DNA of 64,000 nt from Actinomycetota bacterium (GCA_020052375.1 JAGVPG010000021.1:17969-81968); one strand, 5' to 3'. Positions 10,726-61,007 are shown, numbered from the stretch's first letter. Made by a program: numbers and translations. The notes: a model not told the origin generated them from the letters alone.

Positions 10726-11366
10726 AAGTGCTGATAGTCTTCTATTCGATGCACGGACATATTTTAAAGATGGCTCATGCCGTAGCTGAAGGCGTGGATC
10801 AAGTCGATGGAGTAAGAGCGGAGCTCAGGCGTGTTCCAGAGACTATTCCCGAAGATGTTCTAAGAAAGGCCGGAGCGTGGGAGGCTCATCTGGAATGCTC
10901 AAGTATCGCCGAGTGTATGCTCGAGGATCTTGTTGAAGCTGATGCCGTTATATTCGGAACGCCGACGCGTTACGGCAATATGACCGGACAGATGCGGCTG
11001 TTCATGGATAAGACCGGCTCACTTTGGCTGAAGCAGGCATTGGCCGGAAAAGTCGGCGGCGTCTTTACAAGCGGTAACACACAGCACGGAGGGCAAGAAA
11101 GCACGATCTTGAGTTTCTATACGAATCTTTTACACCACGGGATGGTGATAGCCGGTCTCCCGTATCTGTTTAAGGGGCAGATGACGATGAAGGAGATCAG
11201 CGGTTGTTCGCCATATGGCGCGTCCTGCGTAGTCGGCCAGGATGATCCGAGGATGCCGGTCGAGAGTGAACTCGCCGGGGCGAGGTTCCAGGGGAGATAT
11301 GTAGCGCTGTTGACCAGGTCCTTAGCAAAAGATAGGGCAGGGATAGTGGAAGAACTGAAGGAATGA
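10722..11366 (+). CDS. wrbA: NAD(P)H:quinone oxidoreductase, WrbA type
   Basis: MKVLIVFYSMHGH, GTPTRYGNM, QHGGQEST; ATGA overlap with the ATPase stop. Confidence 0.85.
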   Translation: MKVLIVFYSMHGHILKMAHAVAEGVDQVDGVRAELRRVPETIPEDVLRKAGAWEAHLECSSIAECMLEDLVEADAVIFGTPTRYGNMTGQMRLFMDKTGSLWLKQALAGKVGGVFTSGNTQHGGQESTILSFYTNLLHHGMVIAGLPYLFKGQMTMKEISGCSPYGASCVVGQDDPRMPVESELAGARFQGRYVALLTRSLAKDRAGIVEELKE

Positions 11367-11396
11367 AGTGAGGAAGTGAGGAAGTGAGGAAGGAAG
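11365..11396 (+). repeat. 8-nt tandem array GAAGTGAG x3 plus GAAGGAAG
   Basis: Read directly; begins in the wrbA TGA and contains the GTG start of the next gene. Confidence 0.9.
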
Positions 11397-12520
11397 CGGC
11401 GAATCTTTTGTTCCGTTTATATATGGTCGTGGTGGCACTGTTACTTTTAAGTGTCCCGGGATCGTTCGTTTACTGGTATATGCAGCCGGATAAGCCGATA
11501 GATGCCGTATTGATAGACAAGACGGTGCCGACCAAGGAATACAGGGAACACAGATCTTTGATGTGGACTCTGGATAATCTGAAATATGTGAACAAGAAGA
11601 CCGGGATGCCATTCCGTTATGATAAAGACTACTTCGGATTTTTCCCGCTCAGCGGGATCAGATACAACATACGGGAATTGCCTGAACGCATCGGGCACCC
11701 CGATCTCATCTATATCGTTGATACCCTTGGTATCTATAAAAACGATCTAAACCTGCAGACCGTGACCGGTGAACGCTCCGATCTTCTTTATGGAGGAACA
11801 GAAGATCAAGAGGTCGAGACCATAAAAAGAGCGATGACGCAGACAAACATATTGATAGCCGAGTTCGACTCGATAGCAACACCGACAAGGCCGAGAACGA
11901 GCAAGGAGTTGGAGTCCTTGCTGGGCGTTGAATGGACCGGATGGACAGGCCGATACTTTGCGGATCTTAGGAGCTCGAATACTGAAGTGCCTCGATGGCT
12001 GATCACAGGTTATGAGCAACAAAGCGGGAAGAAGTGGTCGTATACAGGACAGGGCATAGCGTTCGTCCACGAAGACGGGACCGTTTTTATCATGACACAT
12101 GGAAGAGATATCGGAAACGGTCTGAACTCGGTGTATTTTAGGGGTGATACCGTGCGCAGGTTCGGTGTCCAGGATCGAGTCAGGTACTACTACTGGTTCG
12201 ATGTAGTTAAACCTAAGGGCGACGTTGAGATATTGGCCGATTACGAGCTCGATGTAACGGCACAAGGAAAAGCCTTGCTTAAGAAGCATGGTCTTAAGTC
12301 TACCTTTCCGGCGATAATCGCCAAAGATTCGCCTTATAATACCTATTATTTCGCGGGGGATTATGCGGACAACAAACCTGTGCCGAGCATATACAACTCG
12401 ACGATAGCGAAGCCCGTGTACTCTACTCTTTCAAGAGATGCAGATGGAAATACAGGATATTTCTACTGGAGGGTATACTATCCTTTGATGACAGGCATAC
12501 TGTCGGAGCTTCCTCGTTAA
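11384..12520 (+). CDS. membrane-anchored hypothetical protein
   Basis: 378-aa ORF; N-terminal TM helix LYMVVVALLLLSV; no motif recognised. Confidence 0.5.
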   Translation: MRKEAANLLFRLYMVVVALLLLSVPGSFVYWYMQPDKPIDAVLIDKTVPTKEYREHRSLMWTLDNLKYVNKKTGMPFRYDKDYFGFFPLSGIRYNIRELPERIGHPDLIYIVDTLGIYKNDLNLQTVTGERSDLLYGGTEDQEVETIKRAMTQTNILIAEFDSIATPTRPRTSKELESLLGVEWTGWTGRYFADLRSSNTEVPRWLITGYEQQSGKKWSYTGQGIAFVHEDGTVFIMTHGRDIGNGLNSVYFRGDTVRRFGVQDRVRYYYWFDVVKPKGDVEILADYELDVTAQGKALLKKHGLKSTFPAIIAKDSPYNTYYFAGDYADNKPVPSIYNSTIAKPVYSTLSRDADGNTGYFYWRVYYPLMTGILSELPR

Positions 12521-12521
12521 G

Positions 12522-14009
12522 ATGTCTTCTATGAAAAGAGGCAGACGGTTTATATCGACCGCGGTCTTTGGCCTGGCTGCAGGATTCATCCTCGGGGTAC
12601 TGACATTGTTTATTGTGAATGTGCCCCTGGAAGCGATGTTGAAACGAACCGGCACTTCGCAGACCATAGTCAATATCACCATGACTGTCGTTATCCTGAT
12701 ATGGGTGGCGACAACCGTAGCGATCACCGTATTTTTCTATAGTACGTGTTTTCGTAAAAAGGAGAGAATAAAGACCGCCGTTATCACGACGACAATAACC
12801 GGAATGATGGCGATCGTCTTGATGGTATTGTTGATTGTCTATCCCGTCGGTCGATGGTTCCCGGATCAGGAATCAGCCTCAACGGATAAGAGCCGGTTTA
12901 CCTTTGGATCGTATCCCGACACCGAAAGACTCGCAAAGCTTAAGGCGGACGGATATGAAGGGGTAATAGCGCTTCTAAGCCCGACGATACCATTTGAGAA
13001 TGTATTGATAGGGGAGGAGAAACAAGCAGTTGAAAAGGCGGGACTGAGGTTCTATTCCATACCCATGCTTCCCTGGATCACTGAAAACCGGGATTCCATA
13101 GAGCAGTTAAAAAAACTGGTCGGCAAGACGAAAGGTAAGTACTTTATCCATTGCTATCTCGGCAAACACCGGATAGATGTGGCAAAGAAGGTCGTCGAGG
13201 GTGAGCTTAAGGAAATAGCGTTGGAAGAAGCCCTGATATTCCCGGACCGGTTGGAAAGAGGGCTGCTCTATACATATGCGGATGGCGGCAAGATACTGGG
13301 TCCGTATCCGACGGATGAAGAATGGTTCAGCACCGTCCTGCGCGGAAGGGTCGAGGAAGTAGTATCCTTTCTTGACCCGGAGAACCCGGGTAATGTGGCA
13401 TTGATCGAAAAGGAAAAGAAGATATGCAGCGATATGGACATTGAGTTTACAAATATGCCGGTCAAGAATGAGCCGGGGATATGGACCGGGATGGCGGAGC
13501 TGACCGGATACGTGCAGTCGAACAGGCAAAAAGTCTATATCCACGGATTCAAAGACGACGAAAGGTTCCAGATGACAGACAGGTTCTTGCGCTTCGGTAC
13601 GACAGGTACAGTTCCAGCAATGGATGAAAAGCAAAGGGGAAGGGTGTATGGAGTCGAAGAAGGCGCCATGCCGAAAAGCATGGGCGACAGAAAGGCTTTC
13701 TATGTGACAAGGCACATAATCGTGGGCGCCAAGCCGAGCGAGAATGAAATGAACCGGCTCGCCGGACTGGGGGTCGCTACGATAATCCTGCTCGACGAGC
13801 CTAAGGCCATGAAGAGCTCTGAAAAAAGCAGGATCAAAAAGGCCTGCAGGGACAATGATATGGCTTTTAAAGAGATCGAATTCGATGAAGATTACGTAAG
13901 CGAAATAGCGGAGGAAGCTATAAAAGACGGCAATCCATGTTTCGTATTAACGCCGGAGGGAGCGCAGTTCCAGGTAGATCACGACCTGAATGCCGTCATC
14001 TTACATTAG
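12522..14009 (+). CDS. integral membrane protein with cytosolic Cys-based phosphatase-like (HCX5R) domain followed by degenerate repeats
   Basis: About 4 N-terminal TM helices; P-loop FIHCYLGKHR; later segment YIHGFKDDER lacks the Cys. Confidence 0.5.
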   Translation: MSSMKRGRRFISTAVFGLAAGFILGVLTLFIVNVPLEAMLKRTGTSQTIVNITMTVVILIWVATTVAITVFFYSTCFRKKERIKTAVITTTITGMMAIVLMVLLIVYPVGRWFPDQESASTDKSRFTFGSYPDTERLAKLKADGYEGVIALLSPTIPFENVLIGEEKQAVEKAGLRFYSIPMLPWITENRDSIEQLKKLVGKTKGKYFIHCYLGKHRIDVAKKVVEGELKEIALEEALIFPDRLERGLLYTYADGGKILGPYPTDEEWFSTVLRGRVEEVVSFLDPENPGNVALIEKEKKICSDMDIEFTNMPVKNEPGIWTGMAELTGYVQSNRQKVYIHGFKDDERFQMTDRFLRFGTTGTVPAMDEKQRGRVYGVEEGAMPKSMGDRKAFYVTRHIIVGAKPSENEMNRLAGLGVATIILLDEPKAMKSSEKSRIKKACRDNDMAFKEIEFDEDYVSEIAEEAIKDGNPCFVLTPEGAQFQVDHDLNAVILH

Positions 14010-14070
14010 GCCGCAGGAATCGTGATAGAATGGTCGTGGTCGATCGGCATAATGAGGATGGCGAGGTATA

Positions 14071-15015: not shown

Positions 15016-15033
15016 CCAACGGAGCCTTCTAAA

Positions 15034-15930
15034 ATGGGCAAGATATATGTAGGAACTGCCAGCTGGACAGACCCCACCTTGACTCAAAGCACGCTCTTTT
15101 ATCCCTCGAAAGCGATGTCGGCGGAGGAACGCCTAAGGTTCTACGCTTCTCATTTCAATGCGGTAGAGGTTGATTCCACATATTATGCTTTGCCGGCCGA
15201 GCGGATGGTCATGCTTCAGACGGAAAGGACACCGGCTGATTTCAAGTTGAGCTATAAGGCCTTCGGGGCGCTGACACGGCATCCGGTGGATGTGAGAAGA
15301 CTGCCCAAAGCGGTCAAGGCAGTGATGAGGCCATCGGTCATTGAAGAGGACCGGCTTGACTTCCGGGGGGTCGAGCCGGAAGTCCTCGATCTTATGTTCG
15401 ACATGTTCAGGAATGCTTTGAAGCCGGCGGATGAAGCGGGCAAGCTGGGAGCGGTCCTGTTCCAGTTTCCGCCATATTTTACGTATGACACGGAAAATAT
15501 GGATTACATAGTGAAATGCAAAGAGAAGCTTCCGGACTACGACCTTGCGATAGAATTCAGGCACTCGAGCTGGACGACAGGGCCCAATAGACAGGAGACG
15601 ATAGAATTCTTAAGAAGCAACGGTCTTATATATACGGTAGTGGATGAGCCGCAGTTTGAGAGCGGGTCCACAGCGCCTTTCATCCCGGTAACGACGGGCA
15701 ATGTCTCCTATGTCAGGTTCCATGGAAGGAACAAAGAGGCATGGTTCAAGAAGGGCATAACGACAGCAGAGAGGTTCGCCTACCTGTATTCGGAGGAAGA
15801 ACTGGGCGAACTGGGGGAAGAGATCCGCGTGCTTATAAAAGAGACGAATGCGACATATGTGCTTTTCAACAACTGTTTTCAAGACTACGGCGTACGGAAT
15901 GCCAAGATGATGAAAGCCATACTGAGTTAG
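15034..15930 (+). CDS. DUF72 family protein
   Basis: IYVGTASW, FYP, RLRFYASHFNAVEVDSTYYALP, TPADFKLSYK, TRH. Confidence 0.85.
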   Translation: MGKIYVGTASWTDPTLTQSTLFYPSKAMSAEERLRFYASHFNAVEVDSTYYALPAERMVMLQTERTPADFKLSYKAFGALTRHPVDVRRLPKAVKAVMRPSVIEEDRLDFRGVEPEVLDLMFDMFRNALKPADEAGKLGAVLFQFPPYFTYDTENMDYIVKCKEKLPDYDLAIEFRHSSWTTGPNRQETIEFLRSNGLIYTVVDEPQFESGSTAPFIPVTTGNVSYVRFHGRNKEAWFKKGITTAERFAYLYSEEELGELGEEIRVLIKETNATYVLFNNCFQDYGVRNAKMMKAILS

Positions 15931-15949
15931 CAAGAAGCAAGAAGCAACA
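15929..15949 (+). repeat. 7-nt tandem array AGCAAGA x2 plus AGCAACA
   Basis: Read directly; begins inside the DUF72 TAG stop. Confidence 0.85.
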
Positions 15950-15956
15950 CACTCCC

Positions 15957-15985
15957 TTGACTCCCATATCTCCTCGTGTTATCTT
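15957..15985 (+). promoter_or_regulatory. candidate sigma-70 promoter of the small-ORF/dinB operon
   Basis: TTGACT, 17-nt spacer, TATCTT. Confidence 0.35.
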
Positions 15986-15997
15986 TAATCATAAACA

Positions 15998-16012
15998 CGA
16001 ACATATGTTTGC
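15998..16012 (+). promoter_or_regulatory. candidate LexA operator (Cheo-box type)
   Basis: CGAACATATGTTTGC fits CGAAC-N4-GTTYC apart from the last base; same extended motif upstream of lexA. Confidence 0.55.
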
Positions 16013-16024
16013 ATTGGAGGCGTT

Positions 16025-16276
16025 ATGATCACAGAAATCAGCGAGCAAATCGAAGTGGACGCGGTCTTCAGCAACGGGCAACTTAACCCCGTCAGTTTCG
16101 TATGGAACAAGCGCCTGTACCGCGTCAAAAAGGTCCACGGGCGGTATCAGGACTTTGTCGGCCGCACGCAGCGTCTCCACTACGCGGTCGGCGCCGGTGC
16201 GGGAGAGGTGTTTGAGATCTCCTTCAACACGGAAGACATGACCTGGGAGCTTCTACGCATCCACAACAAGTCTTAA
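16025..16276 (+). CDS. small hypothetical protein co-transcribed with dinB
   Basis: GGAGG RBS; 83 aa; stop 6 nt before the dinB start; SOS box upstream. Confidence 0.55.
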   Translation: MITEISEQIEVDAVFSNGQLNPVSFVWNKRLYRVKKVHGRYQDFVGRTQRLHYAVGAGAGEVFEISFNTEDMTWELLRIHNKS

Positions 16277-16282
16277 ACAAAC

Positions 16283-17503
16283 ATGCCTATCCATATCGAC
16301 ATGGATGCCTTCTTCGCTTCGATAGAACAGCGGGACATCCCTTTATACAAAGGCAAGCCACTGATAGTCTGTCATACCGACGACGCCCTATCGATAAGAG
16401 GAATAGTCTCGACATCGTCCTATGAGGCCCGAGAATACGGTGTCAGATCTGCGATGTCGGTCCTGGAAGCAAAGCGCCTCTGCCCCGACGGCATCTATGT
16501 CAAGGGAAGTTATGATAAATACCTGCATAATGCCAAGACTATCCATGAGATCTGCCTGCGCTATTCCGACAAAGTCGAGATCTACTCGGTGGACGAGTTC
16601 TTTATCGACGCCAGAAACAGCAGCCGCCTGTTCGGCGGCGAAGTGGACATCGGCCTTCAGATCCAGAACAAGATCGCCGAAGAGATAGGCCTGCCTTGTT
16701 CCATCGGCATCGGGCCCAATAAACTGGTCGCCAAGATGGCGTCGGAGTTTAAAAAGCCCCGCGGTCTGACCGTCATCGAAGAGGCCGACCTGCCCGACGC
16801 CTTTGCGCCCTTGCCTGTCTATAAACTGGTCGGCGTGGGCAGGAAGATGAGAAGGCATCTTAATTCGATGGGCATATTCACCATCGGCGACCTTGCCGGA
16901 ACTCCGGAAGATGAGCTGAAGAGCCGTTTCGGCATAGTCGGGACCGCTCTGCGCCAGGCATCGCTCGGCATGAATTCCAGTACCGTCCACAGCTCTTTCA
17001 ATCTAAGAGAAAGCATAAAATCCTTCGGCCATAGCTCGGCTCTGGGAAAAGGACTCTCCGACTTAGACAGACTCACCAAGGTCTTGCTAGGGCTCACGGA
17101 AGGCGTCACAAGAAGGATGAGGAAAGAAGGCTATGCCGGCCGTACGGTAAACATAAGGCTGTCCATGGCCCGGCTTTTTACCGTCTGCCGCAGCAAAAGC
17201 ATGGCCGTTTCCTCCGACCTGACCGATGACGTCTATCCCATGGCAGTAAATCTTTTAAATAAGGAAAGCCAGCTTCTCGCCCGGTATCCCGTGACGACGA
17301 TCGGAGTCAGCGTAAGCAATCTGACCGACATGGAAAAAGGTCTTCAGCTATCCGTATTGGACCTGCTGGAAAACAGGGCGGGCAAGATAGCGTCGGTGAT
17401 GGATTCGATCAGGGGCAAGTTCGGCGAGCGGGCCGTCTTAAGAGCGTCTCTAAGCGACTGGGGACGGCGCTACCACAGCGTCCCCCGATTGGAGATCAAA
17501 TAG
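16283..17503 (+). CDS. dinB: DNA polymerase IV (Y-family)
   Basis: IHIDMDAFFASIEQRD, YSVDEFFID, little-finger region. Confidence 0.9.
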   Translation: MPIHIDMDAFFASIEQRDIPLYKGKPLIVCHTDDALSIRGIVSTSSYEAREYGVRSAMSVLEAKRLCPDGIYVKGSYDKYLHNAKTIHEICLRYSDKVEIYSVDEFFIDARNSSRLFGGEVDIGLQIQNKIAEEIGLPCSIGIGPNKLVAKMASEFKKPRGLTVIEEADLPDAFAPLPVYKLVGVGRKMRRHLNSMGIFTIGDLAGTPEDELKSRFGIVGTALRQASLGMNSSTVHSSFNLRESIKSFGHSSALGKGLSDLDRLTKVLLGLTEGVTRRMRKEGYAGRTVNIRLSMARLFTVCRSKSMAVSSDLTDDVYPMAVNLLNKESQLLARYPVTTIGVSVSNLTDMEKGLQLSVLDLLENRAGKIASVMDSIRGKFGERAVLRASLSDWGRRYHSVPRLEIK

Positions 17504-17761: not shown

Positions 17762-17902
17762 ATTCGCTCACACGAAATATTTAATGTAGCCGCCGACCTT
17801 CAGGTCGGCCCACCCAAAACGTCGTTCCGAGCGTTAGCGAGGAATCCACGGAAACGTGCAGCTAAATGTCATCATTGTGAGCTCACCGCTAGGTGAGCGA
17901 AT
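17762..17902. repeat. structured non-coding element bounded by a 10-bp inverted repeat
   Basis: ATTCGCTCAC (17762-17771) / GTGAGCGAAT (17893-17902); encloses hairpin GCCGACC-TTCA-GGTCGGC (17792-17809), GAGCGTTAGCG (17829-17839) and hairpin GCTCACC-GCTA-GGTGAGC (17881-17898). Confidence 0.7.
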
Positions 17903-21471: not shown

Positions 21472-22911
21472 ATGAGCATGAATAAGCGTTTGAGCCCCAC
21501 ATATCTGATACTCGCGTATGCCATCGGAATGATATTGGTCATCGTGGGTTGTACAAGTGGTTCGTTCTCCGGAAAGAACCTCCGCAAGAAGCAGAAACTC
21601 GTCGGCCCTAAACTGTATCAGACCGATAGAGTCCTGGTCATAGCACCGCATCCCGATGATGAGACGATAGCGCCTGCCGGCCTGATACAGGAATGCCTCA
21701 AGAGGAAGATCCCGGTCAAAGTCGTGCTGATGAACAACGGTGATGGTTATAGACGATGCGCCATAATCAATTTCAAGACCCTGGAGCCGACAATAGAAGA
21801 TTACAAACGTCTGGGATATATCCGGCACCAGGAGAGCTTGAACGCGATGACATCCTTAGGATTGAGCGAGAAGGATGTGATCTATCTTTCTTATGCGGAC
21901 GGATCCACGAATTCATTGTTTGAAAAGAACTGGGATTATAGTGATCTGCACAAAGGGACAAACGGTGATACGCACGCTACATATCCTTTTGCCTACGAAC
22001 CGGACGCTCCATACTGCGGCGAAAACGTGGTGAAAGATCTACAGCAGATCTTTGATGACCTTAAGCCGAATGTCGTCATATATCCCGATCCTGAGGACGA
22101 CCACCATGATCACTGGGCGACGAGCGCTTTCGTGGAATATGTAGTGAGTAAGATCAAGTACGACGGCCGGCAATATACATATCTGGTCCATAAGGGATTC
22201 GACTGGCCGTTCCCGTGGTTATACTCACCGGAGAGCACTCTTGAACCGCCTCCGGAGCTGGTAGGGCTCGATGCGCGATGGTTGCGGTTCAAGATCACGA
22301 CGGACGAAGAACAGAAGAAGGAGACGGCCCTGGGCATGTATGAAAGCCAGAAACTGATGGCCGAACCCTTCCTTAAAGCGTTTGTGAGAACGAACGAGCT
22401 CTTCGCATGCTATCCGGATATCGTCTTACCTCCGGTAAAGAAGGAGCCCGATTTCTTCAAAGGAAGGATAATGCCCAGCGTAGCGTTCAGGGATCCCGCG
22501 AAGGATGCGCTCACCAGGGAACTGGAAGGTTTCGGCGATATCATAGAAGTCAGCTTCGCCTATGATAGAAAGAAGGTATGGATGGCTTTAGAAACAAGAA
22601 GAGGGATAGCGCCGGACATCGTCTATGGATACCATGTAAGGATCTTCAAAGGAGACGATATAAAGCGGATCGACGTAAACGCAAAAGAGAAGGTGGCAAG
22701 GATCGGGAAAGAGGCATCGAACAGCATTTTCATAGACAAACAGGTACCTATGAAGACGATGAACAACAGGATGGTGATAGAGCTGCCGTATTCGTATTTC
22801 GACAACGCCGATGTAGTCATGTTGAATGTGGACTCATTCAATTCGCAGGACGGCAACCATAGAAGGATAGACCGGACCGCCTGGAGACGACTCTATTTAG
22901 ATAACAGATAA
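21472..22911 (+). CDS. PIG-L/LmbE family deacetylase with extra C-terminal domain
   Basis: VLVIAPHPDDETI, HHDHWAT; N-terminal anchor or lipobox VGCTSG. Confidence 0.75.
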   Translation: MSMNKRLSPTYLILAYAIGMILVIVGCTSGSFSGKNLRKKQKLVGPKLYQTDRVLVIAPHPDDETIAPAGLIQECLKRKIPVKVVLMNNGDGYRRCAIINFKTLEPTIEDYKRLGYIRHQESLNAMTSLGLSEKDVIYLSYADGSTNSLFEKNWDYSDLHKGTNGDTHATYPFAYEPDAPYCGENVVKDLQQIFDDLKPNVVIYPDPEDDHHDHWATSAFVEYVVSKIKYDGRQYTYLVHKGFDWPFPWLYSPESTLEPPPELVGLDARWLRFKITTDEEQKKETALGMYESQKLMAEPFLKAFVRTNELFACYPDIVLPPVKKEPDFFKGRIMPSVAFRDPAKDALTRELEGFGDIIEVSFAYDRKKVWMALETRRGIAPDIVYGYHVRIFKGDDIKRIDVNAKEKVARIGKEASNSIFIDKQVPMKTMNNRMVIELPYSYFDNADVVMLNVDSFNSQDGNHRRIDRTAWRRLYLDNR

Positions 22912-22927
22912 CAGGGAACAGGGAACA
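22900..22927 (+). repeat. 7-nt tandem array GATAACA x2, GGGAACA x2
   Basis: Read directly; spans the TAA stop at 22909-22911. Confidence 0.9.
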
Positions 22928-22935
22928 GTAGATCT

Positions 22936-22962
22936 ATGTAGCAGCCGACCTTCAGGTCGGCT
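22936..22962 (+). repeat. copy of ATGTAGC-N-GCCGACC-TTCA-GGTCGGC hairpin element
   Basis: 25 of 26 nt identical to 17784-17809, same orientation. Confidence 0.85.
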
Positions 22963-23035: not shown

Positions 23036-23111
23036 CGGGCGGTGGCGCAGCTTGGTTTAGCGCACCGGACTGGGGGTCCGGAGGTCGCGGGTTCGAATCC
23101 CGCCCGCCCGA
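23036..23111 (+). tRNA. tRNA-Pro (anticodon GGG)
   Basis: Acceptor CGGGCGG/CCGCCCG, D-stem GCGC/GCGC, anticodon stem CCGGA/TCCGG with loop CTGGGGG, T-arm GCGGG-TTCGAAT-CCCGC; CCA encoded at 23112-23114. Confidence 0.92.
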
Positions 23112-23210
23112 CCATCCTTCGCGGTGAGACTCCGGCTTAAAAGCCTCCGTCTTTATACTTGCTACGGATGGCAGGCCATTCTTTGTTTAAGAAATGAGCG
23201 AAGGATGGTC
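23110..23210 (+). repeat. 13-bp inverted repeat that includes the tRNA 3' end
   Basis: GACCATCCTTCGC (23110-23122) / GCGAAGGATGGTC (23198-23210). Confidence 0.8.
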
Positions 23211-23270
23211 GCCCTTCGTAGCCGTTAAAGCCGGAGCGTTAGCGGAGGCTAGCGAGTGGCGTAGAAGGGC
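23211..23270 (+). repeat. hairpin-bounded partial copy of the GTAGCCG...GAGCGTTAGCG element
   Basis: GCCCTTC/GAAGGGC stem; GAGCGTTAGCG at 23234-23244 is identical to 17829-17839. Confidence 0.7.
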
Positions 23271-23508
23271 AAAACAAAACCAATAGACTCACACTACTCA
23301 CAAACCCTCACGTCAGCTCTCAATGGAGATAATTTTTAACAGCCTCGCTTAAGAGAAAAAGCAGCTTTCCCGCAAAACAATCCAAAACAGACTTAAATAG
23401 ACAGAACTGGACAGAAGCTGGATGTGATGTTTCTACAGGTCAATCGAGCTGTGCTACAATAAGTCGTAACAGGGCGAAACACTAAGATGCATACAGATAG
23501 GAATAGCT

Positions 23509-26717: not shown

Positions 26718-26745
26718 TGAAGGATGAAGGAGAGCGGAAGAGAAG
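26718..26745 (+). repeat. purine-rich 7-nt array TGAAGGA x2, GAGCGGA, AGAGAAG
   Basis: Read directly between the priA stop and the def start. Confidence 0.75.
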
Positions 26746-29619: not shown

Positions 29620-29775
29620 TATCGGCCTTCGGGGCAGGGTGAGATTCCCGACCGGCGGTAAAGTCTTTTTAACAAGACTTAAGCCCGCGAGCTTAGATCT
29701 TTAAGCAATAGATCAAAAGCAGATCCGGTGAGATGCCGGAGCCGACAGTAAAAGTCTGGATGGGAGAGGGCGGTT
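29620..29775 (+). promoter_or_regulatory. FMN riboswitch (RFN element)
   Basis: CTTCGGGGCAGGGTGAGATTCCCGACCGGCGGTAAAG, AGCCCGCGAGC, GATCCGGTGAGATGCCGGAGCCGACAGTAAAAGTCTGGATGGGAGAGG; upstream of ribD. Confidence 0.93.
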
Positions 29776-29845
29776 CTTAATCTGGCTTATATAAGCTCAA
29801 GGATCTGCTTTTTCCTTGGGCGTTTTTTATTTAGGGAAAAAGATG

Positions 29846-29866
29846 GAAGAGGGAAGATGGAAGATA
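29846..29866 (+). repeat. 7-nt array GGAAGAG, GGAAGAT x2 containing the ribD ATG
   Basis: Read directly; AGATGGAAGA occurs twice 14 nt apart, giving an out-of-frame upstream ATG at 29843. Confidence 0.8.
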
Positions 29867-30951
29867 GACAATTCATGGAAAGGGCACTGAAGCTAGCCGA
29901 GAAAGGCAGGGGGCGGACGAGCCCGAATCCACTGGTAGGATGCGTCATAGTAAGAGACGGTGAGATAGTGGGTGAAGGATACCACGAGCAAGCCGGTCTG
30001 CCGCATGCAGAGATAAACGCTCTTAAACAAGCCGGAGACAGGGCTGCCGGAGCGACGATGTATGTTTCTTTAGAACCATGCAACATCCACGGCAGGACAC
30101 CTCCGTGTACGGACACGATCATATCGGCTGGGATAAAGAAGGTCGTCGTAGCGACGGATGACTCGAATCCGAAAGTGGCCGGAAAAGGCATGGCGGTCTT
30201 GAAGAAAGCGGGTATCCAGGTGGAATGCGGGATATTCAAGGACCGGGCCAGGAAGTTGAACGAGTCATATAACAAGTATATGACCACCGGCTTGCCTTTT
30301 GTGACCTTAAAGGTGGCCATGAGCCTGGATGGCAAGATAGCTACAAAAACCGGTAGTTCCAGGTGGATAACCGGTGAAGAAGCAAGAGAAGTGGTCCATC
30401 GAATGAGGGCGGACAGCGACGCGGTGCTTACAGGCGCCGGTACTGTCAACGCGGACAATCCCAGTCTTACAGCCCGCCTTGATGAAGAGGGTATACGCCA
30501 ACCGGTGAGGGTGATACTCTCCGGCGACGGTTCGATCGACGAGAATTCATATGTGGTCACCTCCGCGAGGGATCTTCAGACTATCTTGTTTGCGACGGAA
30601 AAGATCACCCTTAGAAAAAAAGACAGGTTGGAAGCTCTCGGGATCGAAGTGGTGGTCATAAAGAGCGACAAAGCGTATGTATCATTGAGACGCGTACTGG
30701 CCGAGTTGGGGAAAAGACAGATCGTAAGCGTAATGGTCGAAGCCGGAACGGCACTTATAACGGCGTTCATAGAGTCCGGGGCGTATGACAAAACAGTCGT
30801 ATTTGTCGCACCCAAGGTGATAGGCGGGAAAGACGCGCCGACTTTCTTTGCGGGATCAGGGATAAGTGACATCAAAGACGCGTCGGATCTTAAGTTCTCT
30901 GACATCAAAAAGGTCGGCAAAGATGTGATGATAGAGGCATATAAGAAGTGA
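29857..30951 (+). CDS. ribD: bifunctional diaminohydroxyphosphoribosylaminopyrimidine deaminase / 5-amino-6-(5-phosphoribosylamino)uracil reductase
   Basis: GRTSPNPLVGCVIV, HAEINAL, LEPCNIHGRTPPC, reductase half. Confidence 0.92.
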   Translation: MEDRQFMERALKLAEKGRGRTSPNPLVGCVIVRDGEIVGEGYHEQAGLPHAEINALKQAGDRAAGATMYVSLEPCNIHGRTPPCTDTIISAGIKKVVVATDDSNPKVAGKGMAVLKKAGIQVECGIFKDRARKLNESYNKYMTTGLPFVTLKVAMSLDGKIATKTGSSRWITGEEAREVVHRMRADSDAVLTGAGTVNADNPSLTARLDEEGIRQPVRVILSGDGSIDENSYVVTSARDLQTILFATEKITLRKKDRLEALGIEVVVIKSDKAYVSLRRVLAELGKRQIVSVMVEAGTALITAFIESGAYDKTVVFVAPKVIGGKDAPTFFAGSGISDIKDASDLKFSDIKKVGKDVMIEAYKK

Positions 30952-31048
30952 GTTGTGAGTTGTGAGTAGTGAGTCGTACTTTTTTGAAGGGATATCCTCG
31001 GATTCCTTTTACCCAACTCACGACTCACTACTCACTACTTACTAGCAA
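30952..31048. repeat. inverted pair of 7-nt arrays forming a 16-bp-stem hairpin
   Basis: GTGAGTAGTGAGTCGT (30962-30977) / ACGACTCACTACTCAC (31020-31035), 42-nt loop. Confidence 0.9.
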
Positions 31049-31056
31049 CGGAGTGT

Positions 31057-31662
31057 ATGGTGTTTACGGGGATCATAGAAGAACTCGGAGAAGTCAAACA
31101 GATAAAGTTGGGAAGGGAGCCGGAGATCTACATAAAGGCAACCGAAGTCCTAGGCGACCTTAAGACCGGTGATTCCGTGGCTGTCAACGGTGTTTGCCTG
31201 ACCGCGAAAAGGATCACAAAGGACGGTTTTGAGGCGGATATGATGCCTGAGACGATTAAAAAAACAGGTCTAAAAGAACTGAGACGCGGGAGTAAAGTGA
31301 ACCTTGAACGTGCCATCAAAGCGGGCGATCGCTTCGGCGGTCATATGGTGAGCGGCCATGTCGACGATATCGGAAGGATAAAGCGGGTCACGCCCGAAAG
31401 CAATGCCAGGATCCTTCTCATCGAGGCGCCGAAAGATGTTATGGAGTTCATCGTCCCGAAAGGTTCGGTGGCAATCGATGGTATAAGCTTGACCGTCGTG
31501 GATGTCACAAGAACGGGTTTTTCGGTGTCGCTGATCCCGCATACCATGAATATGACGGGCCTTGGCGTTAAGAAAACCGGCTCTACGGTCAATATAGAGG
31601 TTGATATGATAGCGAGATATGTATCTAGCAAGAGGCAAGAAGCAAGAAGTAAGAGAGAGTAG
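31057..31662 (+). CDS. ribE: riboflavin synthase
   Basis: [15 protein letters not shown], two-barrel repeat GISLTV. Confidence 0.92.
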
Positions 31663-31682
31663 AGAGTGGAAAGTGGGGATGG
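31627..31682 (+). repeat. eight-unit degenerate 7-nt array (AGCAAGA family then GAGAGTR)
   Basis: Read directly; covers the ribE C-terminal tail, its stop and the ribBA start. Confidence 0.85.
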
Positions 31683-32947
31683 ATATGGGATTTGCGACGA
31701 TAGATGAGGTGCTCAAAGATATAAAGCAGGGCAAGATCGTGATCGTGATCGATGACGAAGACAGGGAGAACGAGGGAGATTTCGTCTGCGCGGCGGAAAT
31801 GGTGACACCGGAGATCATCAACTTCATGGCAAGACACGGACGCGGCCTGATCTGTATGCCTTGTGAGGGAAAGAGATTGAAAGAGCTCGGGATACCCGAA
31901 ATGGTAGCGGATAACACATCGGCTCACAACACCGCGTTCCATGTGTCGATAGGCGCCAAAGGAAAGATCACGACCGGCATATCAGCGAAAGACCGGGCCG
32001 TTACGATCCAGGCGGTCATAGATCCTAAGACAAGGCCGGAAGATATAAGCAGGCCCGGCCATGTTTTTCCTTTAGGGGCATCGGAAGGCGGTGTTCTCAA
32101 GAGAGCCGGCCATACGGAGGCGGCGGTGGATCTCGCTTCGATGTCAGGACTATATCCGGCCGGTGTGATATGCGAGATCATGAACGAAGACGGCACTATG
32201 GCACGTTTGCCGCAACTTAAAAAGGTGGCCCTGGCACACGGGTTGAAGATCGTCACGATCGCCGATCTTATCGAATACCGGCGGCGGACGGAGAAGTTCA
32301 TCGAGAGAGTAGCGGAGATCAACTTACCGACCAGATACGGCGACTTCCGCGCGTTCGCATATAACTGCATCCTTGACGGGAAAGCGCATCTGGCTATCGT
32401 CAAAGGAGATGTGGACGGAAAGGAAAACGTTCTCGTGAGGGTGCATTCTGAGTGCTTGACGGGCGATGTGTTCAAATCATTGCGGTGCGATTGCGGAGAC
32501 CAGTTCGACGAGGCGCTGCAGCGGATCGAGAAGGAAGGCCGGGGTGTGTTTCTATACATGTCACAGGAAGGCCGCGGGATAGGTCTGTTGAATAAGCTCA
32601 AGGCATATGAGCTTCAAGAGCGCGGGAAAGATACGGTCGAGGCCAATCTGGAACTTGGTTTCCCGGCCGACCTAAGGGACTATGGCGTCGGCGCACAGAT
32701 ACTGGTAGACCTCGGCCTGAGCTCGATCAGGCTTATGACGAATAATCCGAGAAAGATAGTCGGTATAGAGGGCTATGGCCTGAAGGTCGTGGAAAGAGTC
32801 CACTTGAAGGTGAAAGCCCATCAAGGCAATATCGAATACCTGAAGACCAAGAAACAGAAGTTGAATCACCTGATCCATGATGACGACCTTAAAGTGCATA
32901 AGACAAACGAGGAAAAAGAAAGGGAGGATTGCCATGAAGACGTATGA
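31679..32947 (+). CDS. ribBA: bifunctional 3,4-dihydroxy-2-butanone-4-phosphate synthase / GTP cyclohydrolase II
   Basis: [37 protein letters not shown]; start moved to ATG 31679 after the ribE stop. Confidence 0.9.
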
Positions 32948-38760: not shown

Positions 38761-39695
38761 TGATAGCGCTTGTCGGACCGACGGGCATCGGTAAGAGCGA
38801 GGTCGCATACTTACTGGCGAAGCGGCTTGACGGGGAGATAGTCTCCGCGGACTCGATGCAGATATACAAAGAGATAGACATAGGTACCGCGAAACCCTCG
38901 AAAAGCGACCGGAGTATGGTAAGACACCACATGCTTGACATCGTATCGCTAAAGGAAGAATACTCGGTCGCTCGTTTTCAAGAAGACTCAAGGCAGGCAA
39001 TAAGCGAAATACAAGGTTCCGGTAAGACACCGCTGGTAGTAGGCGGGTCCGGGCTATATATCCGGGCTATAGTCGATGACCTGGATTTTCCTCCATATAC
39101 AAAAAAGGCTCTCGAAATAAGAAAGCAGCTGGAAGAAGAGGCGGAAGCCAAGGGCGCAGCTCACTTATATGCCACATTGGAAGAGATAGATCCGGACACC
39201 GCCGCCGGGATCCATCCCAATGATATCAGGCGTGTGATACGAGCCATCGAGGTCAAGATGGTCTCTGGAAAGTGTTTTTCGGATTTTCCGAAGGCCTGGG
39301 TCAGCAGGGAATCCATATATGACCTGAAGATGCTCGGTTTAAGAACACAGCGTTCGACTCTTAATGAAATGATCGACTTAAGAGTCGACCGGATGATAGA
39401 TCAAGGGCTTATCGACGAGGTGAAAGATCTTGTAGACAAGGGTTTCATAAAAGAACTGAGGCGGAAGAGGGCGCTCGGGTATGTGGAGATACTCGACTAC
39501 CTGGAAGGGACCATACCGGTAGACGAAGCGGTCTCAAGGATAAAGGTAAAGACTCATCGCTTTGCCAAAAGGCAGATGACCTGGTTTAATGCAGACTCCA
39601 GGGTGGTATGGTTCGACAGAGGCAAAGAAGATGATGCAACGAAGTTGACGGATAGATTAGAATCATATTTAGAAGAGCTGAAGGATGAAGGATGA
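38721..39695 (+). CDS. miaA: tRNA dimethylallyltransferase
   Basis: VIALVGPTGIGKS, SADSMQIYKEIDIGTAKP, GGSGLY; TTG 38721 or GTG 38760 start. Confidence 0.9.
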   Translation: MQDKPVHSHQIPLVIALVGPTGIGKSEVAYLLAKRLDGEIVSADSMQIYKEIDIGTAKPSKSDRSMVRHHMLDIVSLKEEYSVARFQEDSRQAISEIQGSGKTPLVVGGSGLYIRAIVDDLDFPPYTKKALEIRKQLEEEAEAKGAAHLYATLEEIDPDTAAGIHPNDIRRVIRAIEVKMVSGKCFSDFPKAWVSRESIYDLKMLGLRTQRSTLNEMIDLRVDRMIDQGLIDEVKDLVDKGFIKELRRKRALGYVEILDYLEGTIPVDEAVSRIKVKTHRFAKRQMTWFNADSRVVWFDRGKEDDATKLTDRLESYLEELKDEG

Positions 39696-39708
39696 AGGCT
39701 GAAGGAGA
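39681..39708 (+). repeat. 7-nt array AAGGATG x2, AAGGCTG, AAGGAGA
   Basis: Read directly; spans the miaA TGA (39693-39695) and the dapF RBS. Confidence 0.9.
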
Positions 39709-53278: not shown

Positions 53279-53282
53279 GTAA

Positions 53283-53371
53283 AGAGGCGAGATGAACTTC
53301 CTACATGGAACAAAAGAAAAGAGGACAGTTACTCTCGTTACAAACCTCTTTTCTTATCTCATCTCGCCTCT
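53283..53371. repeat. long two-tier inverted repeat (hairpin)
   Basis: AGAGGCGAGATGA (53283-53295) / TCATCTCGCCTCT (53359-53371); inner AAGAAAAGAGG (53314-53324) / CCTCTTTTCTT (53345-53355). Confidence 0.85.
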
Positions 53372-53532
53372 AATATCTACGTTAAACCTCATATCTTATA
53401 AAGTCAATGGGTGGGAAGAAGAAAATAAAAAACCTTTAAAATGCCACGTTAGCGTTATGTCTACTTCTATTCCCGACTTCGTATAATATATGTTATGTAA
53501 ACTACTTATGTATATCACTTAAACTTCTCTTA

Positions 53533-53572
53533 CTACTTCACTACTTCTCTGTTTCCCTACTTCCCTATTACG
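53533..53572 (-). repeat. 8-nt tandem array (plus strand CTACTTCA, CTACTTCT, CTGTTTCC, CTACTTCC, CTATTACG)
   Basis: Read directly; lies immediately 3' of the archaemetzincin stop. Confidence 0.8.
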
Positions 53573-54085
53573 TTACTTCTCTTCCAACAGCATCCTATGG
53601 TCGTCACAGAATGTAATGGGCTTAGCATCCGTCTCTTCGGCGTTCTCGGAGAACCGCATGACGCAGTCATGCCTGTCGCAGTGAAGCAGTCCAAAGGTAT
53701 GTCCGATCTCATGGACGGCTTCTTTTCTGACGCGCTCTATAAAGTTAAGCATATCGCCGGTTCTTAGACGGTAAAGAGAGATGACGGCGTACACCCCGTT
53801 GACCTGGGCCTGTCCGAAGATATAATTGCGTCCTCGGACGTAAAGGTCGTCATTTGTAACAGAAAGGACCTTCCTGCCCTCCCCTACCTCAAGACGCGTT
53901 ATACGTCTAAGGATCGTAGGGGCGCTGAACTGGTTACGGCGGGCGCTGAAGGCATGTAAGGGCATGTCAAGAGGTGATAAGACTTCGATGTCACAGTGAA
54001 ATGAAGATGTGAGCACGTCTTCAAGAGAACGGATGATCATCGGATCGATCTCTCCGAAGGGCTGTATCGAGATCACGTCTGGCAT
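53573..54085 (-). CDS. archaemetzincin-like (M54) zinc metalloprotease
   Basis: HEIGHTFGLLHCDRHDCVM..FCDDH, i.e. HExxHxxGx3Cx4CxM with the final CxxC reading CDDH. Confidence 0.8.
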   Translation of the reverse strand: MPDVISIQPFGEIDPMIIRSLEDVLTSSFHCDIEVLSPLDMPLHAFSARRNQFSAPTILRRITRLEVGEGRKVLSVTNDDLYVRGRNYIFGQAQVNGVYAVISLYRLRTGDMLNFIERVRKEAVHEIGHTFGLLHCDRHDCVMRFSENAEETDAKPITFCDDHRMLLEEK

Positions 54086-57110: not shown

Positions 57111-57117
57111 CTTAGAC

Positions 57118-57501: not shown

Positions 57502-57503
57502 AT

Positions 57504-58511: not shown

Positions 58512-58526
58512 GGGTGATCGAGGACC

Positions 58527-58997: not shown

Positions 58998-59019
58998 AGG
59001 TCACCTTGTTTATATTCTA

Positions 59020-59661
59020 TCACACGTCGGGCTGTCGATATACCTGCATAACGGCTATGACTTCGCTGTCCGTCGTCTGGTCGAACCTCTCGTAAAACTG
59101 GCCGACCGCATAGAAGATCGAGGGGGCGTGCGCGACTACGATATCATCGGCTTTATTCTTAAGTCTTTGTAACGTATCAGGGGGTCCTACGGGGACGGCA
59201 AGGACCAGATGAGCCGGTTGAAGTTTCTTTACGAACTCAAGCGCGGCTTCCGTAGTGGCGCCGGTGGCTACACCGTCATCGACCACGATCGCCGTCTTTC
59301 CTTTTACTACGAGAGGCCCCAGACCTTCGCGGTAGACAGCGGTACGGCGTTCTATCTCCTTGATTTCGTTCTCTATAGTCATTTCAAGGTATTCGTCAGA
59401 AACGGCAAGGTGGGTGATCAGGTTTTTATCGAGGACCTGGATCCCACCCGGAGCGATCGCTCCGAGGGCCAGTTCCGGATTGCCGGGAGCTCCGATCTTT
59501 CTGGGAACGACCAGATCAAGTGGTGCGCCAAGCGCTCTTGCTACCTCGTGAGCAACGATAACACCGCCGCGCGGTATGCCGATGACGACTACGTCGCTAC
59601 CCTTATAGGAAATAAGCAGTTCCGCTAGGTAACGGCCTGCGTCGCGTCTGTCTCTAAACAT
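59020..59661 (-). CDS. phosphoribosyltransferase family protein
   Basis: MFRDRRDAGRYLAELL, IPRGGV, AIVVDDGVATGAT. Confidence 0.75.
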   Translation of the reverse strand: MFRDRRDAGRYLAELLISYKGSDVVVIGIPRGGVIVAHEVARALGAPLDLVVPRKIGAPGNPELALGAIAPGGIQVLDKNLITHLAVSDEYLEMTIENEIKEIERRTAVYREGLGPLVVKGKTAIVVDDGVATGATTEAALEFVKKLQPAHLVLAVPVGPPDTLQRLKNKADDIVVAHAPSIFYAVGQFYERFDQTTDSEVIAVMQVYRQPDV

Positions 59662-60956
59662 AGTTCTCCTTTAAGAGAATAGGGAGACGCCGCGGTTACT
59701 TTTATATCGACGAACCTGTCAATAAGAGATCTGTCGCCTTTGAAATTGACTACTTTGTTGGTCCGGGTCCGCCCTGCCATGAAGTCATTATCGCGACGGC
59801 TTCTACCTTCGACCAGCAACTCGACGGTGTTGCCGACAAGTTCGCCGTTCTTTTCATTGCATATCTCATTCTGTCTTTCAACCAGCAGGTCGAAACGATC
59901 GTGTTTTACGATAGCCGGTACATCATCTTTAAGGGTAGCCGATCTTGTTCCCGGACGCGGCGAATATATGAACAAAAAAGCCTGGTCAAAACGGACACTA
60001 TCGACTATATCCATAGTCATTTCGAAATCCTCATCGGTCTCTCCGGGAAACCCGACGATTATGTCAGTGGAAACGGCTGAACCGGGCACTCTATCCCTGA
60101 TGCGTTCAATCAGCTCAATATATTGCGATCTCGTATAACCGCGGTTCATCGCGCTAAGCATAGTGTCTGAACCGGACTGGAACGGTAGATGCAGATACTC
60201 GCAGATATGTTTTCCACCGGCGATGGCATCAAGCATCTCATCCTCGAGATCTTTTGGATGGGATGTGACGAATCTTATCCTATCCAGGCCTTCAACGTCG
60301 TCGAGTTTCTGTAGAAGGTCGACGAACAGGCCTTTTTTCCCGAGATCGCTGCCGTAAGTGTTCACGTTCTGCCCAAGCAGGGTGACTTCTTTAACACCAT
60401 CAGACACGAGGTCGTTCACCTCATGGATTATATCGGGAAGCTGGCGGCTGACCTCTACGCCTCTTACATGCGGCACTATACAGTAGGAACAGTAATTGCT
60501 ACAGCCCCTGATTATGGGCACCCATGCACGGGCTCTATGACGCCGCAGCGTAGGTAATCCTTCCGGGATGCGACGGTGGCCGTCGATGTCGCATAGGGCT
60601 TTACCGTGTTCGATGGCCTCGTCTATCAGCGCGGGCAGGTTCTGAAAATTCCTCGTGCCGAAGACTACGTCGATATATGGAAATGACTTAAGAAGCTTTG
60701 ATCCGGCTCGTTCGGCTACACAACCGCCGACTGCGATCAAGCGATCGCCCGATCGCCTCCAGTTCTTAAGTGACCTGATGTTGCCGTATAGACGCTCCTC
60801 AGCGCGAGCTCGAACGCTGCACGTATTGAAGATGACGATATCAGCCGTTGAAACGGAAGCGACCGGTTCGTGACCGGCGCTTGTCATGAGGCCGCTTATC
60901 ATCTCCGAGTCGGCCTTGTTCATCTGGCAACCGAATGTCCTGATGTAGTAACGCAT
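59625..60956 (-). CDS. miaB: tRNA (N6-isopentenyl adenosine-37-C2)-methylthiotransferase
   Basis: YIRTFGCQMNKADSE, RGCSNYCSYC, TRAM C-terminus. Confidence 0.85.
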   Translation of the reverse strand: MRYYIRTFGCQMNKADSEMISGLMTSAGHEPVASVSTADIVIFNTCSVRARAEERLYGNIRSLKNWRRSGDRLIAVGGCVAERAGSKLLKSFPYIDVVFGTRNFQNLPALIDEAIEHGKALCDIDGHRRIPEGLPTLRRHRARAWVPIIRGCSNYCSYCIVPHVRGVEVSRQLPDIIHEVNDLVSDGVKEVTLLGQNVNTYGSDLGKKGLFVDLLQKLDDVEGLDRIRFVTSHPKDLEDEMLDAIAGGKHICEYLHLPFQSGSDTMLSAMNRGYTRSQYIELIERIRDRVPGSAVSTDIIVGFPGETDEDFEMTMDIVDSVRFDQAFLFIYSPRPGTRSATLKDDVPAIVKHDRFDLLVERQNEICNEKNGELVGNTVELLVEGRSRRDNDFMAGRTRTNKVVNFKGDRSLIDRFVDIKVTAASPYSLKGELCLETDATQAVT

Positions 60957-60979
60957 GTGTCTATTTTAGCATAGGAAAG

Positions 60980-61007
60980 ATCGTGAATCGTGCAACGTGA
61001 ATTGTGA
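60980..61007. repeat. 7-nt tandem array ATCGTGA, ATCGTGC, AACGTGA, ATTGTGA
   Basis: Read directly between the PHP stop and the miaB start. Confidence 0.9.

Follow-up and report, generated by a model that had tools for sequence, protein, structure and literature searches.

Tandem arrays of 7- and 8-nucleotide units at gene junctions of a compact actinomycetotal genome as probable hypermutable simple-sequence repeats

The stretch of DNA considered here is a 64,000-nucleotide (nt) segment of an Actinomycetota bacterium (GCA_020052375.1, JAGVPG010000021.1:17969-81968), referred to as the window, and its subject is a set of short tandem arrays with units of 7 or 8 nt that sit at the ends of genes. 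The gene map consists of the longest open reading frames (ORFs), which cover about 95% of the window and leave 53 gaps totalling 3.35 kb. An earlier note on this DNA had described twelve such arrays; the sequences it quotes do sit where it places them, and its gene names agree with Pfam for the WrbA-like FMN reductase, DUF72, PIG-L, PriA, Def, RibE, MiaA, DapF, M54 peptidase, MiaB and PHP proteins. Arrays were detected with Tandem Repeats Finder (TRF), reported at a minimum score of 30, and with an in-house lag-p local-score scan (match +1, mismatch -2) in which a score of at least 12 is the strict threshold and which was also run with a softer scoring scheme. The features of the window are as follows, with scan scores given after those of TRF.

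11349..11396, plus strand: octamer array, GAAGTGAG three times with degenerate units on either side (TRF 56, 100% matches; scan 21-26)
15929..15949, plus strand: heptamer array, 2.7 copies of AGCAAGA, beginning in the TAG of the DUF72 gene (TRF 38, 100% matches; scan 12)
22899..22928, plus strand: heptamer arrays, GATAACA twice and then GGGAACA twice, across the TAA of a PIG-L family gene (TRF 32 and 38; scan 17-19; Pfam PIG-L)
26718..26745, plus strand: weak candidate, two TGAAGGA copies followed by purine-rich sequence in the priA-def gap (below the TRF minimum of 30 and not in the scans)
29840..29868, plus strand: heptamer array, 3.7 copies of AAGATGG/AAGAGGG, in the 5' leader of ribD (TRF 45; scan 13-16)
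30948..30977, plus strand: heptamer array, four copies of GTGAGTN, beginning in the ribD TGA and forming the 5' arm of a hairpin (TRF 47; scan 17-19)
30971..31024, no strand: core of the ribD-ribE hairpin, consisting of the inner arm ends and the loop, inverted relative to two related contigs, L161 and L162
31016..31044, plus strand: heptamer array, four copies of ACTCACN, the reverse complement of the 30948 units, forming the 3' arm of the hairpin (TRF 44; scan 16-18)
31627..31682, plus strand: heptamer array, four AGCAAGA-type units and then GAGAGTR-type units, encoding the RibE tail and its TAG (TRF 42; scan 15-24)
39679..39708, plus strand: heptamer array, four copies of TGAAGGA, over the last MiaA codons and the TGA (TRF 49; scan 17-18; Pfam IPPT and DAP_epimerase)
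53532..53582, minus strand: octamer/16-mer array, GGGAAGTA GGGAAACA GAGAAGTA GTGAAGTA (TRF 37 at period 8 and 51 at period 16; scan 16)
60980..61008, minus strand: degenerate heptamer array, four ATCGTGA-type units as read on the plus strand, in the space between a PHP-domain gene's stop and the start of miaB (TRF 37, 77% matches; soft scan 12)

Ten of the twelve intervals are real tandem arrays by TRF and the scans, with TRF calls at 11365, 15929, 22899/22910, 29840, 30948, 31016, 31627, 39679, 53532 and 60980. Of the periods from 4 to 15, the strict scan of the whole window yields arrays at two only, seven with period 7 and one with period 8, and softer scoring additionally picks up those at 53532 and 60980. 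Under 40 blockwise dinucleotide-preserving shuffles of the window about 0.0 arrays are obtained per period, and eight period-7 TRF rows score 37 or more where 0.03 are expected from 40 shuffles passed through TRF. Together with 300 local shuffles of the junction segments these make three kinds of shuffle control, by which chance or low complexity is ruled out as an explanation; an assembly artefact is likewise ruled out, as the arrays are also seen in independent assemblies from ENA, JGI and Logan. The preference for heptamers is striking, with period 8 in second place, and overall the observation is largely confirmed and statistically very strong.

Several details of the earlier description needed correction. 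Neither 14018 nor 26718 is called by TRF or by the strict and soft scans: the former, which one single-nucleotide polymorphism aside is identical in four genomes, is an ordinary spacer and no array, and support for the latter stops at two copies. Most coordinates and periods were correct, the phase at 29846 being one base off and the period at 31017 being 7 rather than 8. The junction arrays are real, but about nine junctions rather than eleven carry a supported one. The unit does mostly differ from site to site, at least seven different units being present in 64 kb with any one of them at no more than two sites; the repeated ones are AGCAAGA (15929 and 31627) and TGAAGGA (26718 and 39679).

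The position of the arrays relative to the genes is equally far from random. When the 53 gaps are extended by 30 nt on each side, the resulting junction segments amount to 6.5 kb and the coding interior to 57.5 kb. Six period-7 and two period-8 arrays fall in these segments, where 0.013 and 0.04 would be expected; none of the local shuffles ever contained more than one. The remaining two period-7 arrays (31628 and 39679) lie at overlaps of neighbouring ORF ends, so that eight of eight period-7 arrays are at junctions, and the coding interior contains none. Of the two outcomes by which the earlier note would have been refuted, a lack of positional enrichment and absence of the arrays from independent assemblies, neither was observed. 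The sole period-7 or period-8 match in any coding interior of the window is a period-8 near-repeat, GCGATCAA GCGATCGC CCGATCGCC, at 60733-60757 within the miaB coding region, which is built on the palindrome GCGATCGC. In six of ten arrays the next start codon lies inside the array or no more than 12 nt past its end.

The octamer array at 11349 spans the last codons and the TGA of a wrbA-like flavoprotein gene (Pfam FMN_red) as well as the Shine-Dalgarno (SD) region of the gene that follows and its called GTG start, and TGA is present in all three of its frames. In the rib operon, a flavin mononucleotide (FMN) riboswitch (Rfam RF00050, 116.5 bits; 29621-29775, plus strand) precedes ribD; its terminator-like run, GGGCGTTTTTTATTT, is directly followed by the 29840 array, which contains an SD-like GAGG and the ribD ATG. 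The array at 31016, correctly described earlier as an inverted counterpart of the one at the ribD stop, ends 12 nt ahead of the ribE ATG, and the array at 39679 gives AAGGAG 5 nt before an in-frame GTG of dapF (39713). The stop codon of the M54 peptidase gene (Pfam Peptidase_M54) has the 53532 array immediately on its 3' side, in a convergent gap, and both genes that flank the 60980 array are on the minus strand (Pfam PHP and UPF0004/Radical_SAM/TRAM).

Some further features lie close to these arrays. The 22899 arrays are upstream of a hairpin and a transfer RNA (tRNA) gene, tRNA-Pro(GGG), which is followed by 394 nt without an ORF (23036-23508) where ACTCAC motifs at 23287-23312 resemble the 31016 units. 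A hairpin of the repetitive extragenic palindromic (REP) type, GCAGCCGACCTTCAGGTCGGC, occurs twice in the window, at 22941-22961 and 17789-17809 (0 and 1 mismatch; zero expected by chance), and again right after miaA in a distant relative, L165 (about 5340-5367; 65% MiaA protein identity). Next to the 53532 array, a 64-residue ORF (53292-53486) is of low complexity, has no Pfam match and looks spurious, and therefore the convergent gap between the dUTPase and M54 genes (53279-53572) is probably about 290 nt of non-coding DNA; besides the octamer array it holds a period-13 repeat (53493-53521). Over positions 1-64000 the plus strand has a purine excess, GC skew and AT skew both being positive, up to about 54 kb and reversed in sign after about 56 kb, and this switch coincides with the change of gene orientation from plus to minus.

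A RibBA search of genome and metagenome collections returned nothing above 70% identity, the closest protein being that of Candidatus Solincola sediminis (Geothermincolia, Actinomycetota) at 70%, and the 160 loci retrieved were kept as controls only. Closer relatives were found by protein searches followed by exact-protein look-ups; such look-ups with the RibE, RibD (P0121), Def and M54 peptidase sequences of the window gave no matches. The strain comparison covers the arrays other than those at 22899, 26718, 53532 and 60980 and uses the following contigs.

L164 (ENA): 98.1% nucleotide identity over 11 kb
L166 (JGI): 97.7% nucleotide identity over 8.2 kb
L168 (Logan): 97.2% nucleotide identity
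L167 (ENA): 96.2% nucleotide identity over 13.4 kb
L161 (ENA): 94% nucleotide identity
L162 (Logan): 85% nucleotide identity
L163 and L165 (Logan): 65-69% protein identity

In the four contigs that are 96-98% identical to the window (about 33 kb aligned), insertions and deletions (indels) are found almost exclusively in the arrays. Substitutions in the strain alignments reach about 15% in the arrays, compared with 2.3% for coding DNA and 3.9% for the remaining spacers, the last value being inflated because it includes the inverted hairpin core. The length differences are whole units. At 39700, L164 has exactly one TGAAGGA (7 nt) fewer than the window, which is its sole indel in 11 kb outside the ribE-ribBA junction, and at 11364 both L166 and L167 have one additional 8-nt unit, AAAGTGAG, the sole indel in the 8.2 kb of L166. 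The 3' hairpin arm of L161 is one heptamer longer than that of L162. The notion of a local duplication process with slippage hot spots, put forward in the earlier note, is supported by the one-unit differences at 39700 and 11364.

Entire arrays are also exchanged. At the ribE-ribBA junction the AGCAAGA-type heptamers of the window correspond in the 98%-identical L164 to a 74-nt octamer array, (GGGAAGTA/GGGAAATA)n, of which L162 has a shorter version, and only the 3' ends of the arrays can still be aligned between strains. In the ribD leader the L161 array, with its GGAAGAT-type units, is identical to that of the window, whereas the place is taken in L162 by heptamers of another kind, (AACAGTG/AACGGTG) x5, and in the distant L163 by a GTGAA array of period 9. 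Neither of the other two rib junctions has an array in L163; there ribD and ribE overlap and ribE and ribBA are 8 nt apart. Taken together the patterns among strains appear to be the signature of slipped-strand turnover, in which one variant would expand while others are lost.

Other differences at the arrays are rearrangements or shared sequence. L167 lacks the 15929 array, and its synteny with the window is broken exactly at the stop of the DUF72 gene. In the window this array is followed by a DUF6504 gene and a gene for a Y-family polymerase (IMS, ImuB/DinB-like; 16025-17503, plus strand), and in L167 (13400-13648) the last 23 nt of the contig match window positions 17487-17465 in reverse; given this match and the break, the DUF6504/Y-polymerase cassette seems to be inverted or rearranged there. 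In the ENA sample ERZ27256953, the L161 contig (1940-2108) leaves the ribE-ribBA array about 30 nt in, after GAAGTAGCG, for unrelated sequence, and the L164 contig (1-98) starts inside the same array, which may reflect a rearrangement, an insertion or heterogeneity of the strain or population at the array. The L161 tail matches nothing in the window and nothing in Rfam, the latter result disposing of a group II intron or other RNA as its identity. A 17-mer, GGGAAGTAGGGAAACAG, is identical between window positions 53549-53565 (minus strand) and the non-orthologous ribE-ribBA junction of L162 (about 2250-2275) and L164 (about 35-60), and the longer stretch GGGAAGTAGGGAAACAG(G/A)GAAGTAG, which in the window lies on the 3' side of the M54 gene, agrees at 24 of 25 nt with the ribE-ribBA array in both contigs. 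An independent origin of this stretch is unlikely, and it suggests that array sequence may occasionally be copied between loci.

The arrays at 30948 and 31016 can pair into a stem of about 30 bp in the ribD-ribE spacer. The RNA fold of 30940-31060 has a predicted energy of -49.1 kcal/mol (z = -6.4) and none of 200 shuffles folds as well; in L161 the hairpin is kept with other unit variants (-45.2 kcal/mol, z = -5.6). Its 54-nt core (30971-31024) matches L161 (1266-1320) and L162 (1598-1652) at 52 of 54 positions as the reverse complement, with a local score of 50 compared with 12 in the forward direction. The core is thus flipped in both relatives by a small inversion, whose breakpoints lie within the heptamer arms and which would arise most simply by recombination or template switching between the arms. 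A simple consensus scan for terminators did not flag the ribD-ribE hairpin, and the idea that the flipped core toggles a terminator is pure speculation. Intercistronic hairpins of the REP type or of the bacterial interspersed mosaic element (BIME) type are familiar, and small inversions of hairpin loops are best known from the non-coding DNA of chloroplasts. The ribD-ribE spacer resembles these in its long stable stem and in having the segment between the arms flipped between relatives; unlike REP/BIME-type elements, its arms are made of heptamer arrays and it is a single copy rather than a member of a dispersed family.

The unit changes leave the flanking genes largely intact. The array-encoded tail of RibE lies past the Lum_binding domain, whose Pfam match extends to residue 183 of 201, and RibE in each close relative ends at a stop supplied by the array, its length being 201 residues in the window, 193 in L161, 196 in L162 and 190 in L163; the tail is no conserved part of the enzyme. 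Homology of RibBA begins around residue 25 of the long ORF, with a conserved ATG at 31685, 2 nt after the array. The called proteins at miaA-dapF have 324 (MiaA) and 287 (DapF) residues in both the window and L164, such that the loss of one unit in L164 would seem to change the stop-to-start spacing only; if the ATG within the array were the true dapF start, the ATG of another unit would fall in frame after the loss. The extra octamer at the wrbA junction likewise alters the distance from the wrbA stop to the next start and leaves the two flanking ORFs at 214 and 378 residues. For annotation it matters that gene callers set starts and stops within arrays, and therefore the called protein ends of the RibE tail, the long RibBA ORF, DapF and the product of the gene after wrbA are not to be trusted.

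The most probable explanation, at roughly 0.75, is that the arrays are hypermutable simple-sequence repeats (SSRs) with units of 7 nt, less often 8 nt, which belong to the heptamer-dominated SSR class of bacteria. It is proposed that slipped-strand mispairing during DNA replication or repair creates the arrays and keeps remodelling them, and that an occasional strand-switch event yields an inverted copy. As units of 7 or 8 nt shift the reading frame, arrays would persist only where the gain or loss of a unit is harmless, and in a genome that is about 95% ORF such sites would be the intergenic stretches of a few tens of bases and those protein tails that can be dispensed with. The arrays would thus seem to be parked on stops and starts because a repeat with a period indivisible by three can be accommodated only outside reading frames or in such tails, and a surviving array must then abut a stop or start. 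No separate positional grammar, as the earlier note had considered, is needed, since coding constraint in a compact genome explains the placement. A length of about 7 nt may be favoured, according to a published idea, as it matches the length of duplex held by the polymerase, and purine richness could arise as arrays seed from stop, SD or Lys, Glu and Arg codon sequences and only versions that keep the stop and the SD are retained.

Five points weigh against this explanation. Slippage as the molecular mechanism is itself inferred from sequence comparison; the 25-nt stretch common to 53549 and the non-orthologous ribE-ribBA junction of L162 and L164 is left unexplained by it; so is the retention of an array of the GTGAA type in the ribD leaders of both L162 and the 69%-identical L163, with a period of 7 in the one and 9 in the other; and the preference for 7 nt is still without explanation in the literature (PMC6344855). 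Furthermore, strand-neutral slippage does not predict the strand asymmetry of the arrays, eight of which are purine-rich on the sense strand and none on the opposite strand except for the hairpin arm and 60980. Purines make up 80-90% of the messenger RNA (mRNA) strand in these eight arrays, against backgrounds of 56% for coding sequence and 54% for the remaining co-directional spacers, the exceptions being the G/T-rich hairpin arm, its forced complement and 60980. This asymmetry fits either seeding from stop, SD or Lys/Glu/Arg codon sequence or selection at the RNA level.

Selection at the RNA level is at the centre of a rather unlikely alternative, in which the arrays are cis-acting mRNA elements at operon junctions, in the form of spacers that are rich in purines and unstructured and have a stop, an SD-like motif and in some cases a start in their units. 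As 7 and 8 leave remainders of 1 and 2 modulo three, three or more copies would show these signals in all frames, and the junction would stay functional after slippage while the stop-to-start distance and translational coupling are tuned between strains. The purine bias speaks for this, as do the stops in all three frames of the arrays at 11349, 30948, 39679 and 53532 and in two frames of three more, the proximity of the next start in six of ten arrays, the GAGG, GGAG or AAGGA that several arrays offer to the next gene in an organism that uses canonical GGAGG-type SDs, and the unchanged ORF lengths on both sides of the unit indels at 39700 and 11364; the TAACTGA heptamers of MacGregor 2015 also lie mostly just upstream of start codons (PMC4679880). 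However, any period that is not a multiple of three gives stops in three frames once three copies are present, and the purine and stop content could merely mirror the seeding sequence. No start codon lies near the arrays at 15929, 22899 and 53532, an SD is missing from AGCAAGA, GATAACA and ACTCACN and a stop from 15929 and 31016, and unit sequences are not conserved at orthologous junctions. The 69%-identical relative moreover copes with an overlapping ribD/ribE pair and a ribE-ribBA gap of 8 nt with no array at either. The suggestion of the earlier note that arrays are tunable spacers for translational coupling is accordingly sound in so far as unit changes alter the stop-to-start spacing at constant ORF length and several arrays supply SD-like motifs; selection for spacing is unproven. 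That the junctions are self-buffering as well as tunable, each unit contributing a stop and a purine core resembling an SD, in some cases also a start, and three copies placing these in every frame, is an unlikely proposition, but were it true the gain or loss of units would shift coupling and protein tails without breaking the operon, giving a heritable and reversible fine-tuning of housekeeping operons and a functional reason for the favoured prime period of 7 in bacterial intergenic DNA.

It is quite improbable that the arrays are instead copies or remnants of a small dispersed repeat family, mobile or recombining, or were spread by ectopic recombination or template switching rather than arising independently at each site. 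The 17/17 and 24/25 identities between the window at 53549-53565 (minus strand) and the L162/L164 array at another junction are of the kind that such a family would leave, and so are the sharing of AGCAAGA and TGAAGGA between two junctions each, the inverted pair at ribD-ribE, the departure of L161 from the ribE-ribBA array into unrelated sequence, the start of the L164 contig within that array and the break of L167 synteny exactly at 15929. Against it, the units differ at most arrays, terminal inverted repeats, target-site duplications and conserved flanks are all lacking, as is any Rfam match in the arrays or the L161 tail, a near two-letter purine alphabet makes some sharing of 7-mers expected, and the strain differences are whole-unit steps inside arrays as slippage predicts. 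Binding platforms were another suggestion of the earlier note, and it is barely credible that the arrays serve as such for a regulator which binds DNA or RNA and recognises repeated motifs of 7-8 nt. A GTGAG/GTGAA/GAAGT core does recur at 11365, 30948 and 53532 and in the ribD leaders of L162 and L163, and in Geobacter elements of four heptamers are annotated as putative regulatory sites (PMC2700814). Yet the arrays have no one consensus, the number of copies is variable, no functional theme unites the flanking genes, and relatives that retain both riboswitch and ribD have GGAAGAT in one case and AACAGTG in another as the unit of the ribD leader; the suggestion is left without support when unit sequences are unconserved even at orthologous junctions.

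What the preferred SSR explanation adds to the observation of local duplication, which the earlier note had made without recognising the class, is that heptamer-dominated intergenic SSRs are published and widespread. Their predominance in bacterial intergenic DNA is attributed to Mrazek 2007, as cited in PMC4679880 and PMC4692102, and is also described in Rehm 2015 (PMC4692102) and Mori 2018 (PMC6344855), and the slippage hypothesis and descriptions of the class are given in PMC4692102, PMC6344855, PMC4679880, PMC2700814 and PMC6749651; no later literature that explains heptamer repeats was found. The same predominance is seen in the control loci of unrelated bacteria, in which period 7 accounts for 65 arrays against at most 21 for any other period (1.3 Mb), and in a second control set, with 29 against at most 13 (0.81 Mb). 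Control taxa with the period-7 peak include Nitrospirota, Bacteroidales, Geobacter, an alphaproteobacterial metagenome-assembled genome and Methylomirabilota, and many of the arrays form inverted pairs. The arrays are an example, from a new lineage, of a known and still unexplained class and not a new kind of signal. The value of the window is that of a clean strain-resolved example in a compact genome, in which arrays are the sole indel hot spots and change by whole units, a junction can exchange one array for another within 2% divergence of the sequence, and arrays sit on the stop, SD and start signals of essential operons (rib and miaA-dapF); the idea of junction tuning is therefore directly testable with simple reporters.

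Several known systems share single traits with the arrays. As in phase-variable contingency loci, unit number changes between close relatives, but contingency loci have units of 1-5 nt in the promoters or 5' coding regions of host-adapted pathogens, whereas the units here are of 7-8 nt, the genes are housekeeping genes and no ORF is switched, unit changes keeping the called lengths of flanking ORFs. The units are contiguous and of 7-8 nt, unlike CRISPR arrays or other interspaced repeats with repeats of at least 20 nt and unique spacers, and the only Rfam matches in the window are the FMN riboswitch and the tRNA-Pro, with none in the arrays of L161, L162 and L164.

Other published heptamer repeats provide parallels as well. 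They include the short tandemly repeated repetitive (STRR) heptamers of Calothrix PCC 7601, as cited in PMC4692102, the four-heptamer elements of Geobacter (PMC2700814) and the (GATAGRA)n heptamers of Chloroflexus (PMC6749651). The TAACTGA repeats of marine Beggiatoaceae, cyanobacteria and Bacteroidetes occur in 2-6 copies, mostly a few nt upstream of starts, and a post-transcriptional role has been proposed for them (MacGregor 2015, PMC4679880). The window likewise has heptamer arrays near starts and units that contain stop codons; unlike TAACTGA, a single unit conserved across phyla, its units are local and variable, and TAACTGA is in none of the window arrays listed. The GGGAATC heptamers of Xanthomonas and the GGGGA(C/T)T heptamers of Nostoc are intergenic, mostly of about four units, lie between the same gene pairs in related species and vary widely in length and sequence, and some form inverted pairs able to fold into stem-loops (PMC4692102). 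In all this the window arrays are alike, being variable intergenic heptamers at the same junctions in relatives with an inverted stem-loop pair; the difference is that Xanthomonas and Nostoc have one dominant G-tract unit genome-wide, while the window has many units, most of them without G-tracts. In keeping with this, no unit of the window behaves as a single dispersed family of the STRR, TAACTGA, GGGAATC or Geobacter GGACCGG kind, given its unit diversity. The octamer array of L164 (12-85) has six or more GGG tracts with 5-nt loops on the mRNA strand, a pattern of G-quadruplex type like that of the Xanthomonas repeats, and it alone has at least four tracts of three or more G with loops of 1-7 nt, the window arrays having at most two such tracts.

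The closest likeness is to the heptamer-dominated long SSRs with units of 5-11 nt (LSSR5-11; Mori 2018, PMC6344855). The window arrays share with them head-to-tail units of 7, less often 8, nt iterated beyond chance, with period 7 the commonest, a non-coding location at junctions or in ORF tails, site-specific unit sequences and length variation between relatives by whole units, as at 39700, at 11364 and in the 3' hairpin arm of L161 and L162. They differ in being short (3-8 units), in overlapping stops and starts in a very compact genome and in their strong purine bias on the mRNA strand, and they belong to an uncultured lineage (RibBA 70% identical to that of Candidatus Solincola) that is not among the organisms of the cited heptamer papers. 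What looks specific to this lineage is the purine richness of the mRNA strand together with units that carry stop, SD and start motifs.

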